The notes: generated by a model from the letters alone, not told the origin. DNA of 32,000 nt from Faecalibaculum rodentium (GCF_001564455.1 NZ_CP011391.1:1950001-1982000), one strand, 5' to 3'; numbered from the stretch's first letter, positions 22,833 to 27,049 are shown. Translations and numbers: made by a program.

Positions 22833-23795
22833 GTGAATTGGACTATGAAGAATCTGAAGGGAAACCTGCGGTTCTGGCTGGTCATGATGGCGGTCTTTGC
22901 CCTGGGATCTCTGGTGTTCACAGCGGGAATCATCCGGCGAGAACATCTTGTGTTCGGGGCCACGTACATGACCATGAACAACCCGTTTTATCAGGTCATC
23001 AACACGGAACTGCGTAAGGCTGTCACAGAACACGGTGACAGTCTGGTGGTTCGCGATCCCCTCATGAATGCCGACCGGCAGATTGAACAGGTGGAGCAGT
23101 TTATAGCCGATGACGTGGACGGGATTTTTGTGAATCCCGTGGACTCCGTATCGCTGGGTCCGGTCCTGCGCCGGGCACAGAAGGCGGGGATCCCGGTGAT
23201 TGCCGTGGATTCCACGCTCAAGGATGACTCCATGCTGCTGTCGACGGTGATTTCGGACAACTACGATGCAGGCAGGCAGTGTGGCCAGGACCTGCTGGAG
23301 AAAACCGATTCCGCCAGGATCTGGCTCCTGCGGCATTCTGAAGCGGTCTCCGCGAGTGACAGGATCCGCGGATTTCTCTCAGTGGTGGAATCCGTCCCGG
23401 GGTATACAGTGATCGGGGAAGCCGAATGCGAGGGACAGCTCGAACAGGCCATGCCGGCCATGGAGGAACTCATTCGTCTGCACCCGGACGGATCGGTCGT
23501 GATGGCCCTCAACGACCCCTCGGCTCTTGGAGCCATCGCAGCCCTCGAGGAAGCGGGACTGAATTCCGTTCTGGTGTACGGCATTGACGGCACGCCGGAC
23601 ATGAAGAGCCGGATCGCAGTCCATCCCAGTCAGTTCGCGACAGTGGCGCAATCCCCAATCTCCATCGGTTCCATTGCGGCAAGCACGATGTATGAGCATC
23701 TGTCCGGAAAACGCGTGCCTCATTACATCCCTGTGGAAGTGTCCCTGATTGACGGGAAAACCATCGGCGGGTATTCCCTGACGGAGTGGCAGTGA
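22833..23795 (+). CDS. Membrane-anchored periplasmic-binding-protein (PBP type 1, ribose/sugar-binding-like) sensor component
   Basis: 320 aa. N-terminal uncleaved-looking TM anchor (FWLVMMAVFALGSLVFTAG), then a Peripla_BP-like fold (NNPFY..VDGIFVNPVDS..GIPVIAVDS..). The start may be the GTG at 22833 or the ATG at 22845. Its stop is 1 nt before the kinase start. Confidence 0.85.
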   Translation: MNWTMKNLKGNLRFWLVMMAVFALGSLVFTAGIIRREHLVFGATYMTMNNPFYQVINTELRKAVTEHGDSLVVRDPLMNADRQIEQVEQFIADDVDGIFVNPVDSVSLGPVLRRAQKAGIPVIAVDSTLKDDSMLLSTVISDNYDAGRQCGQDLLEKTDSARIWLLRHSEAVSASDRIRGFLSVVESVPGYTVIGEAECEGQLEQAMPAMEELIRLHPDGSVVMALNDPSALGAIAALEEAGLNSVLVYGIDGTPDMKSRIAVHPSQFATVAQSPISIGSIAASTMYEHLSGKRVPHYIPVEVSLIDGKTIGGYSLTEWQ

Positions 23796-23796
23796 C

Positions 23797-25104
23797 ATGA
23801 ATAATATCCTGGCCATGAAGCGGATCCGTCAGGCCATGACGGCACTGAGTTTCCTGCTGGTCCTGTACACCGCCGGCGTCATGCTGGCAGGATCGCTGCA
23901 CATTGTGGAATCCGGAGAATCCTCTTCCTTTCTGCAGTCCATCCCGCACGCTCCTTCCAGTCCCTGGATGGTGTTCTGGCTGAGTTTCATTCTCTGCAGT
24001 CTCCTGAGCTGGCTCATTCTCAATACCGTCCAGGGAAGCAAGTCCGGGATCCTGCTCTGTGCCGGCTTCAAGACACTGCTGGCTTGCATCATCATCTGGA
24101 ACGTGAACCTGAGCTGCCGTCCACTGCTTCTGCTGGTGTTCTCCGATGTCCTGTACACCATGCGGGGATTCCAGGCCCGGTACATGGTGGGCATCGGCAG
24201 TATCCTGACCGGACTGTACCTGCTGTTTTCCTACGAAGTGATCACCCCCATGATCCCCATGGTGAGCACCGGTGTCTACTTTTCGGTATTTGAACACAGC
24301 ACCTCGAGCCTGCTGGCTTTCGGGCAGTCGCTGCTGGAGTCCGCCACGCTGGTGCTGTTCATCGCCTTCATGTGCGAGTTTCTGATTGACCTGCACCAGG
24401 AGAAGGAGAACATCGCGCAGGAACTGAACATGATGAACCGCGTCAACGAAGATCTGCGGCATTATGCACAGATGACGGAACAGATTGCGGAAAGCCGGGA
24501 GCGCAAACGGCTGGCCAGGGAAATCCACGACACACTGGGACATGCCCTCACAGGGATTGCGGCGGGCATTGACGCCACCCTGGTGATCATGGACAAAAAC
24601 CCGGAAATGGCGAAATCCCAGCTGCATCTGGTGCGGCAGGTGGTCTCCGAGGGCATCGGCGATGTCCGCGCGAGTCTTCAGAAACTGCGGCCCGGAGCCC
24701 TGGAACAGCGTGGCCTGAAGGGGGCCCTGGAGAAAATGATCCGGGAGTTCGAGTCTGTCACGGCCATGACCATCGACCTGGACTATCAGGCGGATTCTCT
24801 GGACGTGGACAAGGCCAAGGAAGATGTGTGTTTCCGCCTGGTGCAGGAGTCCATCACCAATGCCCGGCGCCACGGGGCCGCCACCCATGCAGCTGTCCGT
24901 TTCGCGGTCGACGGTGACTGGCTGGTAATCACGGTCCGGGACAACGGCCGCGGACTTCCTCAGAAGACCATCACCTATGGGTATGGCCTGACGCAGATGG
25001 AAGAGAATGTCTCTTCTCTGCATGGAATGCTGCACTTTGACGGATCTGACGGCTTTCTGACAGAAGCGCGGATCCCGCTGACGAAAGGAGAATACCGAGA
25101 ATGA
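23797..25104 (+). CDS. Sensor histidine kinase, HisKA_3/NarL-partner class, ~6 TM with no obvious extracytoplasmic domain
   Basis: 435 aa. Membrane-embedded N-terminal half. H-box ERKRLAREIHDTLGHAL, N-box ESITNARRHG, G-box DNGRGL..GYGL. Confidence 0.9.
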   Translation: MNNILAMKRIRQAMTALSFLLVLYTAGVMLAGSLHIVESGESSSFLQSIPHAPSSPWMVFWLSFILCSLLSWLILNTVQGSKSGILLCAGFKTLLACIIIWNVNLSCRPLLLLVFSDVLYTMRGFQARYMVGIGSILTGLYLLFSYEVITPMIPMVSTGVYFSVFEHSTSSLLAFGQSLLESATLVLFIAFMCEFLIDLHQEKENIAQELNMMNRVNEDLRHYAQMTEQIAESRERKRLAREIHDTLGHALTGIAAGIDATLVIMDKNPEMAKSQLHLVRQVVSEGIGDVRASLQKLRPGALEQRGLKGALEKMIREFESVTAMTIDLDYQADSLDVDKAKEDVCFRLVQESITNARRHGAATHAAVRFAVDGDWLVITVRDNGRGLPQKTITYGYGLTQMEENVSSLHGMLHFDGSDGFLTEARIPLTKGEYRE

Positions 25105-25754
25105 ATGTGATCCTTGCAGACGACCAGGCCATGATCCGGGAGTCTCTGAAAATCGTGCTGGAATGCGAACCGGACATCCATGTCTGTGCCACAGCCCAGG
25201 ATGGAGCCCAGGCTCTGTCTCTCATTGGTCAGATGCCGGTGGATGTGGCGGTTCTGGATATCCGCATGCCCCGGATCGACGGGGTTCTGTGCACCCGGGA
25301 AATCAAAAAACGCTTTCCTCATGTGAAGGTGATCATTCTGACCACCTTTGACGATGATGACTTCGTGTATTCCGCCCTGCGGTACGGCGCCTCGGGCTAT
25401 CTTCTCAAGGGCCTCCCCAGTCAGGATCTGGTCAAGGCGATCAGAACCGTCCATCACGGCGGGGCCATGATCAACCCGGATGTGGCTCACAAAGTGGTGG
25501 ATATGTTTTCCCGGGTGCCGGAATCCACCGGCATTGAAGTGGAACCCGAAAAGGAAGCGTCCCTGTCAGAGACGGAGCGGGCGATTATCCGCGAGGTGGG
25601 AAAGGGCAAGTCCAATAAGGAGATTTCCGGTACGTTGTACCTCTCGGAGGGCACCATCCGGAACTACCTTTCGCAGATTCTTGCCAAGCTGGATCTTCGG
25701 GACCGGACCCAGCTGGCCATCTGGGCGGTGCAGTCGGCGATGTTCCGGCTATGA
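25101..25754 (+). CDS. NarL/LuxR-family response regulator
   Basis: 217 aa. Receiver (ILADDQ..VAVLDIRMP..) plus C-terminal LuxR-type HTH (LSETERAIIREVGKGKSNKEISGTLYLSEGTIRNYLSQILAKL). ATGA overlap with the kinase gene. Confidence 0.92.
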   Translation: MNVILADDQAMIRESLKIVLECEPDIHVCATAQDGAQALSLIGQMPVDVAVLDIRMPRIDGVLCTREIKKRFPHVKVIILTTFDDDDFVYSALRYGASGYLLKGLPSQDLVKAIRTVHHGGAMINPDVAHKVVDMFSRVPESTGIEVEPEKEASLSETERAIIREVGKGKSNKEISGTLYLSEGTIRNYLSQILAKLDLRDRTQLAIWAVQSAMFRL

Positions 25755-27049
25755 GAACCGGTCAGGTCAGAAGAAGTGTCCTGGGGCTGGCTGTAGCCGG
25801 ATTGTGTCTGTCCATGGTGATGAACCTCTGCGGCTGCACTCTGACAGGACGCCGTACCCTGCGGCTGGGAATCTATGCGGGCAGTCCCTGGCAGGTGCAT
25901 GAGTCTTCCGGCTATGAGTATATTGACGAAGCCATCGCGCGGTTTAAAGCGAACCATCCGATGGTGGATGTGGTGTATGAATCCGGGATCCGGATAAACG
26001 ACTACACCCAATGGCTCGATGATGCCGTGGTGATGGGAGAGGTTCCCGATGTCTTTGTCATGCCCGATGAAAAGTTCGGCGAATACGCCAGTCTGGGGGT
26101 ATTGAAAAACCTGGATCCCTACCTCCGGCAGGATGACAGCTGTTCGGAATCGGATTTCTTTCCCGCCGCTGTCCAGTCCGGAAAATATCAGTATTCGCAA
26201 TATGCCCTTCCTTATATGATGAATCCCCGTCTCATGTTCGTGAATGTCTCTTTGCTGAAGGAGGAAGGACTGAAGGTCCCGGAGGAATCCTGGACGCCGG
26301 AACAGTTCCTGGCTCTGTGCAGGCAGCTGACCAGGGATCTGAATCACGACGGCACCCCGGATCAGTACGGTGTGGTGGATTACGACTGGCTGGATCTGGC
26401 AGAAGCCAGCGGTCTGGACCTCTTCTCCGATGACGGCCACAACGTGGATCTCAGGGGCGATCAGGTGCGGAAAGTGACAGAAACCTATCGGCAGCTGACG
26501 GAGTTCATGGGCAGTCAGACAGAGCGGGAGGTGCTCATGGAGGCCGGGCGGGTGGCTTTTGCTCCAATGTCTTATGCGGAGTTCATCACCTACAATCCCT
26601 GGCCCTGGAAAGTGAAGAAGTATTCCGGGTTTGACTGGATCTGCATCAGTCTTCCCCAGGCAGCGGACCGGACCATCCGCTATGCCGGGAATAGTCTGGT
26701 CATGGGCATGAGCGCCGGGACCCGTGACGGAGAACTGGCCTGGGATCTCATGAAGGAATTCTGTGTGAATCAGACAACTCAGACAGGCATCCTGGAGCAT
26801 TCTCAGGGAATGTGTGTGCTGCAGACTGACAAGTCTTTGCTGGATGCATTTCTGGATGATTCCGGGCTGTCCGGCGATACGGTGCGGGCGATCATGAACC
26901 AGGAAGGGACCAGAGTGCGGTTCTCAAAATATGAATCTGCCAGAGAACAGCTGGCAGACCGGATGGAAAAAGCCGCGGCTGATCCGGAAGATCTGGACCT
27001 GCAGCTGGTGGAAATCGAGGAGACAATTCGTTCCTATCTGCGCAGCTGA
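25751..27049 (+). CDS. Extracellular solute-binding lipoprotein (ABC sugar-SBP family 1 fold) with no cognate permease genes
   Basis: 432 aa. Signal peptide with NLCGC lipobox. SBP_bac_1-like (..HPMVDVVYE..VPDVFVMPD..LPYMMNPRLMFVN..). ATGA overlap with the response-regulator gene. Confidence 0.85.
   Translation: MRTGQVRRSVLGLAVAGLCLSMVMNLCGCTLTGRRTLRLGIYAGSPWQVHESSGYEYIDEAIARFKANHPMVDVVYESGIRINDYTQWLDDAVVMGEVPDVFVMPDEKFGEYASLGVLKNLDPYLRQDDSCSESDFFPAAVQSGKYQYSQYALPYMMNPRLMFVNVSLLKEEGLKVPEESWTPEQFLALCRQLTRDLNHDGTPDQYGVVDYDWLDLAEASGLDLFSDDGHNVDLRGDQVRKVTETYRQLTEFMGSQTEREVLMEAGRVAFAPMSYAEFITYNPWPWKVKKYSGFDWICISLPQAADRTIRYAGNSLVMGMSAGTRDGELAWDLMKEFCVNQTTQTGILEHSQGMCVLQTDKSLLDAFLDDSGLSGDTVRAIMNQEGTRVRFSKYESAREQLADRMEKAAADPEDLDLQLVEIEETIRSYLRS

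Follow-up and report, generated by a model that had tools for sequence, protein, structure and literature searches.

The DNA examined here, a window of 32,000 nucleotides (nt) from Faecalibaculum rodentium (GCF_001564455.1, NZ_CP011391.1:1950001-1982000), carries at positions 22,833 to 27,049 a cassette of four co-directional genes for two sugar-binding proteins, a sensor kinase and a response regulator. Comparison with streptococci makes it very likely that these genes are the F. rodentium orthologue of levTSRQ, which encodes the four-component LevQRST system, and that the resemblance is one of homology and not mere analogy. By sequence, the window cassette and the streptococcal lev genes are a single four-gene module, shared through common descent or through transfer. 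The locus introduces no new signalling principle; it is a known system with a lineage-specific loss of its phosphotransferase system (PTS) genes, situated beside a giant fructanase of glycoside hydrolase family 32 (GH32). The four genes are as follows, with lengths in amino acids (aa).

22833..23795, + strand: gene 1, levT homologue; 320-aa, transmembrane (TM)-anchored Peripla_BP_4 (RbsB-like) sugar-binding protein
23797..25104, + strand: gene 2, levS homologue; 435-aa sensor kinase with HisKA_3 (H244) and HATPase_c
25101..25754, + strand: gene 3, levR homologue; 217-aa NarL-type regulator with REC (D53) and a GerE helix-turn-helix
25751..27049, + strand: gene 4, levQ homologue; 432-aa SBP_bac_1 protein with an N-terminal anchor or possible lipobox (LCGC)

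A first-pass annotation of this DNA had described four tightly packed genes, the first two 1 nt apart and the following pairs overlapping at ATGA. Both the open reading frames (ORFs) and the junction sequences agree with that description, the junctions reading TGAcATG between genes 1 and 2 and ATGA at the gene 2/3 and gene 3/4 overlaps, and the order along the strand is binding protein T, kinase S, regulator R, binding protein Q. Gene 1 starts with GTG and has GAGGAAG about 8 nt upstream. Searches against Pfam assigned gene 1 to Peripla_BP_4 (2.6e-47), gene 2 to HisKA_3 (2.4e-18; the family that corresponds to histidine kinase class HPK7) plus HATPase_c, gene 3 to Response_reg and GerE, and gene 4 to SBP_bac_1 (9.8e-17), while the best named relatives of the kinase in NCBIfam were UhpB, at the top, MctS and LiaS. 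The kinase has 99% identity to proteins that bear the name Faecalibaculum rodentium. Hydropathy profiles showed a single N-terminal TM segment in gene 1 (aa 16-34) and approximately six in the kinase, all within aa 19-197 and connected by short loops of which the longest is ~20 aa, with no extracytoplasmic domain in the kinase. Pfam and hydropathy together therefore uphold the earlier picture of an anchored type-1 binding protein, a NarL-type regulator, and a kinase with a membrane-embedded N-terminal half that lacks a sensing domain. For gene 4, which had been called a family-1 sugar solute-binding lipoprotein, the family stands and the lipid anchor is uncertain: an N-terminal hydrophobic segment ends in LCGC, a possible but atypical lipobox with Asn at -4 (judged against the standard lipobox consensus), and streptococcal LevQ has a plain TM anchor.

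Among solved structures, those closest to gene 1 are ribose-binding proteins, and PDB entry 2x7x is matched as well (E 1.7e-18). The first 205 residues of the kinase (window 23797-24411) constitute a six-TM sensor module for which Pfam has no model. When this membrane domain was searched on its own against the full library, only 49 clusters at 50% identity were recovered, nearly all of them kinases of ~430-445 aa aligned at equal coordinates. The LevS-type membrane module has a conserved LLVFxD motif in TM4 and an IPxxPxxVF motif after the first loop.

The characterised representative of the system is that of Streptococcus mutans, in which LevS (SMU.1965c) has been classed as HPK7, the NarX/UhpB/DegS class, and LevR (SMU.1964c) as NarL (PMC3353171). 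The S. mutans operon is named levTSRQ, with levDEFG directly downstream; its LevQ and LevT are TM-anchored and both needed for signalling, its LevS crosses the membrane up to five times and has its kinase domain after approximately residue 214-250, and similar operons occur in S. gordonii, S. sanguinis, two lactobacilli, Clostridium acetobutylicum and Dorea (Zeng, Das and Burne 2011, PMC3043104). According to Table S1 of the same study (PMC3043104), LevQ runs past residue 430 and LevT past residue 269, and therefore LevT would be the ~300-aa type-1 protein and LevQ the ~430-aa family-1 protein, which matches the order in the window. LevQ peptides were decoded from the published S. mutans mutation-detection primers (PMC3043104), and a degenerate pattern covering LevQ residues 256-265 found matches in S. 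macacae, S. devriesei and S. orisasini; an exact 22-mer from the published levS primer had no match in genome contigs, and an earlier degenerate levQ pattern had none in metagenome contigs. The S. macacae locus (L010) reads levT-levS-levR-levQ-levD-levE-levF-levG on one strand. Because its LevS shares 14 of the 17 S. mutans residues given in Table S1 at equal positions, and its LevQ 21 of 24 at an offset of +2, it is a close orthologue of the characterised system and was treated as a valid proxy for it.

All four window proteins are identical in Pfam architecture (Peripla_BP_4, HisKA_3 and GerE included) to LevT, LevS, LevR and LevQ of S. macacae, and all four align with them in BLASTP. Gene 1 is 43% identical to LevT over 269 aa, the part of LevT that was available (E 5e-75), gene 2 is 37.5% identical to LevS over the full length of 440 aa (E 9e-91), gene 3 is 55.8% identical to LevR over 215 aa (E 3e-92), and gene 4 is 36.3% identical to LevQ over 405 aa (E 1e-94). 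The kinase alignment remains collinear through the membrane half, with 27.6% identity there and 48.9% in the cytoplasmic half, and the LevR DNA-binding domains of F. rodentium and S. macacae are 63% identical. Three S. mutans LevQ peptides (Cys188, Cys296, Cys336) align to gene 4 at equal coordinates, and in each the cysteine is kept.

The same module is widespread, and its usual companion is a PTS. In Allobaculum sp. JKK-2023, Erysipelatoclostridium sp. An173 and a human-gut contig, the four genes are directly followed by those for EIIA, EIIB, EIIC and EIID of a mannose-family PTS, joined by a small ORF of 88-89 aa, i.e., levDEFGX. A metagenome scan with the kinase alignment yielded 80 loci (35-99% identity; annotated by tblastn), with the order T-S-R-Q in every surveyed locus where the genes were detected. 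T precedes S in 63/64 loci that have upstream DNA, and levD comes after Q in 44 of the 48 loci with at least 1 kb beyond Q, the four others being F. rodentium, two Dubosiella contigs, and one contig with an insertion sequence (IS) transposase after levQ. In the low-GC relative L024, an IS transposase gene (12401-14008) occupies the usual place of levD, directly after levQ. Dubosiella muris has the same arrangement as F. rodentium, namely the cassette followed by a convergent GH32 gene (2185 aa), with different flanks otherwise and a kinase only 45% identical.

No mannose-family levDEFG(X) genes were found in the window or in its 10-kb flanks, the latter taken from a 135-kb mouse-gut F. rodentium contig that is collinear with the window at 96.8% identity. 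The first-pass annotation had likened the locus to LevQRST; it is indeed the same system, but the canonical PTS partner is missing here, which had gone unrecognised. As to co-occurrence with GH32 genes, for which a survey was also proposed there, such genes adjoin the cassette in F. rodentium, Dubosiella, L022 and L031; the usual partner, as counted above, is the PTS. On the low-GC contig L022, a frameshift-split GH32 gene of ~1670 aa (199-5203; catalytic domain 58% identical) lies directly upstream of T-S-R-Q-D-E-F-G-X. On L031, a 466-aa intracellular-type GH32 behind a 631-aa ORF (4525-7832) adjoins levT of a canonical lev locus. Another relative, L095, has the order ManA-HAD-TSRQ-DEFGX-SecA-PrfB, and in the window ManA (mannose-6-phosphate isomerase; 18857-19819, - strand) is close to the cassette, with SecA and PrfB also nearby. 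The order in L095 and the presence of these three genes around the window cassette therefore suggest an ancestral ManA-lev-SecA-PrfB neighbourhood that was rearranged, with PTS loss, in the Faecalibaculum lineage.

Downstream of gene 4, two further features complete the locus.

27088..27138, no strand assigned: GC-rich hairpin in the gap between gene 4 and the GH32 gene; folding energy -36.4 kcal/mol, z -7.6
27296..31996, - strand: GH32 fructanase, C-terminal 1566 of 1884 aa; Pfam Glyco_hydro_32N/C, FIVAR, Big_2, Laminin_G_3

The cassette is convergent with this GH32 gene, as had been noted for a product of more than 1566 aa, and the full length is now 1884 aa. As the start lies past base 32000, the start codon, signal peptide and promoter dyad are outside the window. 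The complete protein has a signal-peptide-like N-terminus, two lectin domains resembling 3-keto-disaccharide hydrolases, the GH32 module, Big_2, Laminin_G, four FIVAR repeats, and a hydrophobic and basic C-terminus. Its catalytic domain is closest to the exo-inulinases 8i12 and 1y4w, the translation contains the GH32 motifs WANDPNG, RDP and EC, and the enzyme is predicted to be a secreted, surface-associated exo-fructanase. The intergenic hairpin, which none of 200 shuffled sequences equalled in stability and which is followed by a T-run on the + strand, is probably a bidirectional terminator. It was found by folding, a simple terminator scan that required a loop of 3-8 nt having missed it, as its apical region is a nested helix.

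A putative operator connects the cassette to its targets. The levQ-levD spacers share the palindrome ATGACA(A/T)(A/T)TGTCAT: each of the 50 distinct spacers contains at least one dyad site (≤3 mismatches), usually ~100-140 nt ahead of the levD start, and additional dyads, a second or a third, often lie ~21 and 45 nt further on. The consensus derived from these 50 spacers, TGACA-N2-TGTCA, is a well-defined candidate for the LevR operator. Across the 1.23 Mb of collected loci, the core TGACA-N2-T[G/A]TCA occurs 106 times versus ~3.5 expected (our own estimate from the per-position pattern probability with uniform base composition). By location, 71 of these matches were classed as Q-D spacer and 13 as upstream of levT, and four more Q-D spacer matches, in loci added after annotation or truncated, were tagged 'other'. 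Expression of S. mutans fruA depends on a 14-bp dyad at -72 to -59, the probable target of LevR (PMC9241797).

In three lineages, the GH32 gene next to the cassette has such a site too. In F. rodentium, the dyad ATGACATTTATCAC is located 61-74 nt before the GH32 ATG (contig L001, 19216), and in Dubosiella ATGACAATTATCAC is found at the equivalent place, upstream of a 126-aa ORF and GH32. The two promoters share only ATGACA(T/A)TTATCACT and, 23 nt downstream, the -10-like element ATACTGA(A/T)AT. On L022, which is unrelated, a perfect core dyad lies ~100 nt before the GH32 ORF. The Dubosiella muris 126-aa ORF (L004 19885-20265), located between the putative LevR dyad and GH32, has no Pfam match and is apparently in one operon with GH32; no counterpart was seen in F. 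rodentium. A palindrome, TCTGATAATCAGA, at 22800-22812 in the window was not counted as a dyad because of its different spacing.

In S. mutans, LevT and LevQ are extracellular, membrane-tethered proteins which serve signalling and not transport and which act on LevS via its TM4-TM5 region; the inducers are fructose and mannose, and LevR binds the fruA and levD promoters (PMC3043104). Starting from homology, gene order, domains, conservation and operator-like sites, we infer for F. rodentium a ligand, a set of contacts and a mode of GH32 activation as follows. The surface exo-fructanase would free fructose from inulin or levan, and LevT and LevQ would detect free fructose or mannose, the most likely ligands, without transporting sugar. 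They would pass the signal to LevS by contacts within or close to the membrane; LevS would then phosphorylate the NarL-type LevR, and LevR would bind the TGACA-N2-TGTCA dyad and activate transcription. For most relatives, the direct target would be the adjacent mannose-family PTS levDEFGX; for Faecalibaculum and Dubosiella, with the PTS gone from the locus, it would most likely be the adjacent convergent giant GH32 gene. The outcome would be a feed-forward loop, in which fructan yields fructose, fructose is sensed, and more fructanase is produced. Two earlier proposals gain support here, that of a LevQRST-kind four-component sensor with two non-transport binding proteins and an intramembrane-type kinase, and that of a link to fructan or fructose, the latter from the GH32 adjacency in Dubosiella and the Lev-type dyad in the GH32 promoter.

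Some observations count against this account. The sequence comparison was made with S. macacae, of the mutans group, standing in for S. mutans. Absence of the PTS from the genome as a whole is judged only from the lack of any Faecalibaculum protein among the best 120 matches to an Allobaculum LevF-type EIIC; no Dubosiella protein was among these 120 either, and two abundant clusters among them sit in canonical lev loci. The GH32 dyad has one mismatch, its right half-site being TATCA, and no dyad was found upstream of the cassette in F. rodentium. Finally, LevQ is the most diverged component, with 36-39% identity even between Faecalibaculum and Dubosiella, and its ligand may therefore differ. 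As to the mismatch, the same variant precedes GH32 in both Faecalibaculum and Dubosiella, and on the other strand (GTGATAAATGTCAT) it occurs as a secondary site within genuine levD promoters. A further step, in which the Faecalibaculum/Dubosiella sensor would have been uncoupled from the PTS and rewired as a dedicated fructanase switch, with LevQ retuned to fructan breakdown products, is put forward tentatively, and we consider it rather doubtful.

The divergence of LevQ bears most directly on a reading that keeps the Lev machinery and changes its signal, with LevQ and LevT of Faecalibaculum and Dubosiella sensing fructo-oligosaccharides (or mannose only) instead of free fructose. LevQ, the least conserved part, belongs to the oligosaccharide-type SBP_bac_1 family, and the locus has no fructose/mannose PTS with which the sensor could be coupled, yet the S. 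mutans inducers are the monosaccharides named above (PMC3043104) and LevT is of the monosaccharide type, so that we give this reading a slim chance. That the sensor is a relic, decaying or idle since the loss of levDEFG and adjacent to GH32 by coincidence, would accord with the missing PTS target, the strong divergence of LevQ and the lack of a dyad upstream of the F. rodentium cassette. However, the four ORFs are intact, the kinase is present in 846 index blocks, and the ratio of non-synonymous to synonymous substitution rates (dN/dS) of the cassette genes between two F. rodentium strains is 0 to 0.16; these genes are under purifying selection. The arrangement and the GH32 dyad have also been kept in two genera despite the divergence of their kinases, and L022 represents a third lineage in which a dyad-preceded GH32 gene adjoins the cassette. 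With genes intact and constrained and the dyad conserved, decay is decidedly unlikely.

The binding proteins could alternatively be ordinary receptors of ATP-binding cassette (ABC) importers, with permease and ATPase encoded at other sites and the two-component pair only happening to lie between the two receptor genes. Both proteins do fall in transporter solute-binding families, and gene 1 scores best against RbsB. However, no sugar ABC permease or ATPase gene is present in the window, as the first-pass annotation had stated, or within 10 kb on either side on the 135-kb contig, where such genes would have spoken for transport. The four-gene order is fixed in the surveyed loci. Genes were called in eight distinct loci (those of F. 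rodentium, Allobaculum, Dubosiella and Erysipelatoclostridium An173, and L008, L093, L095 and S. macacae L010), and none of these has co-directional ABC transporter genes; the sole ABC gene in their vicinity is a fused gene of exporter type (ABC_membrane plus ABC_tran), located upstream of the Dubosiella cassette and divergent from it. As S. mutans signalling also needs both binding proteins (PMC3043104), a role as importer receptors is very improbable. We give least credence of all to convergent evolution, i.e., independent assembly of a LevQRST analogue on a different two-component family, as the first-pass annotation had argued from the HisKA_3/NarL pair: the contrast in family holds only towards XylFII-LytS-YesN (judged by the kinase and regulator families of that system; XylFII is not among the gene 1 PDB matches at E ≤ 1e-10), and towards LevQRST it is refuted, because LevS and LevR are themselves HPK7 and NarL, the gene order is equal and all four proteins align over their full length, to which the operator dyad common to streptococci and Erysipelotrichaceae may be added.

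By the survey of loci, the Lev four-component system is a conserved module in many gut Bacillota lineages, coupled to a mannose-family PTS in nearly every case, and it ceases to be a streptococcal curiosity. F. rodentium, a commensal of the mouse gut that has been much studied, blooms when inulin is supplied, and the mechanism of inulin use in Faecalibaculum is undescribed (PMC8567720); our literature search found no paper that deals with Lev systems of the Erysipelotrichaceae or with how the F. rodentium GH32 gene is regulated. Placing GH32 in a LevQRST-type regulon would give F. rodentium a concrete model with sensor, operator and target. If true, the rewired Lev switch would be the regulatory basis of the response to inulin or fructo-oligosaccharides in the abundant mouse-gut Faecalibaculum and Dubosiella.

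Several other features of the window were recorded. On the - strand, positions 20053-22432 encode a LytTR response regulator, then a 262-aa GHKL ATPase protein, then an overlapping 289-aa polytopic membrane protein with an H-box-like RRFRHDLINALE near its C-terminus and no ATPase domain, which looks like an Agr/ComD-type kinase split in two ORFs, or a two-piece kinase. An IS element with a 537-aa DDE_Tnp_1_6 transposase (10497-12110, + strand) lies in a low-GC patch (10000-12000; 49% GC versus ~57% elsewhere in the window). A strain polymorphism lies at 17004-17014, where, between YdjC and LuxS, another F. rodentium contig has a 3.0-kb insert (L001 207-3234) that encodes a PTS EIIBCA and a PRD/CAT antiterminator and is lacking in the window strain. 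A 715-aa fusion protein (7759-9906, + strand) combines an acyl-CoA dehydrogenase, an ETF-alpha FAD domain, three rubredoxin domains and rubrerythrin-type zinc ribbons.

Of the known systems, the closest is LevQRST itself. Zeng, Wen and Burne reportedly found in 2006 that in S. mutans it controls the GH32 gene fruA as well as a fructose/mannose PTS. The systems of S. mutans and S. gordonii agree with the window cassette in their four proteins, gene order and Pfam architectures (the window proteins show 36-56% full-length identity to mutans-group orthologues). Also shared are binding proteins with TM anchors, a polytopic kinase that lacks an external domain, dyads of the TGACA-N2-TGTCA type before target genes, and a link to a secreted GH32 fructanase. 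F. rodentium differs in that no levDEFGX follows the cassette and that GH32 is adjacent and convergent, whereas in S. mutans fruA is not known to be linked to the lev locus; further differences are the host, a gut bacterium of high GC content from the Erysipelotrichaceae, and a possible lipid anchor on LevQ, and the system is known here from sequence. Within the Erysipelotrichaceae, the levTSRQ-levDEFGX loci of Allobaculum, Ileibacterium and Thomasclavelia/Erysipelatoclostridium have the same order and dyad and kinases 40-48% identical to that of the window, but they retain the mannose-family PTS and usually have no GH32 gene nearby.

More distant systems share parts of this design. In the three-component XylFII-LytS-YesN (Clostridium beijerinckii), CuaDSR and HptRSA systems, a non-transporting binding protein likewise reports sugar to a membrane kinase. 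The XylFII-LytS-YesN type has one binding protein, a kinase of the His_kinase (PF06580)/LytS-YesM type and an AraC-type regulator, unlike the window cassette with its HisKA_3 kinase, GerE regulator and two binding proteins. The structure 2x7x, matched by the LevT-like protein, is that of BT1754, a hybrid two-component sensor which binds fructose and belongs to the fructan locus of Bacteroides thetaiotaomicron. BT1754 also uses a type-1 periplasmic-binding fold to sense fructose for fructan degradation, but there binding domain, kinase and regulator are fused and no second binding protein exists, whereas the window encodes separate polypeptides. UhpABC of E. coli resembles the cassette in pairing a polytopic HisKA_3 kinase and a NarL-type regulator with an accessory membrane sugar sensor; that accessory protein, UhpC, is a homologue of major facilitator superfamily transporters and not a binding protein. 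A sugar ABC importer, finally, would differ from the window cassette in having linked sugar permease and ATPase genes.

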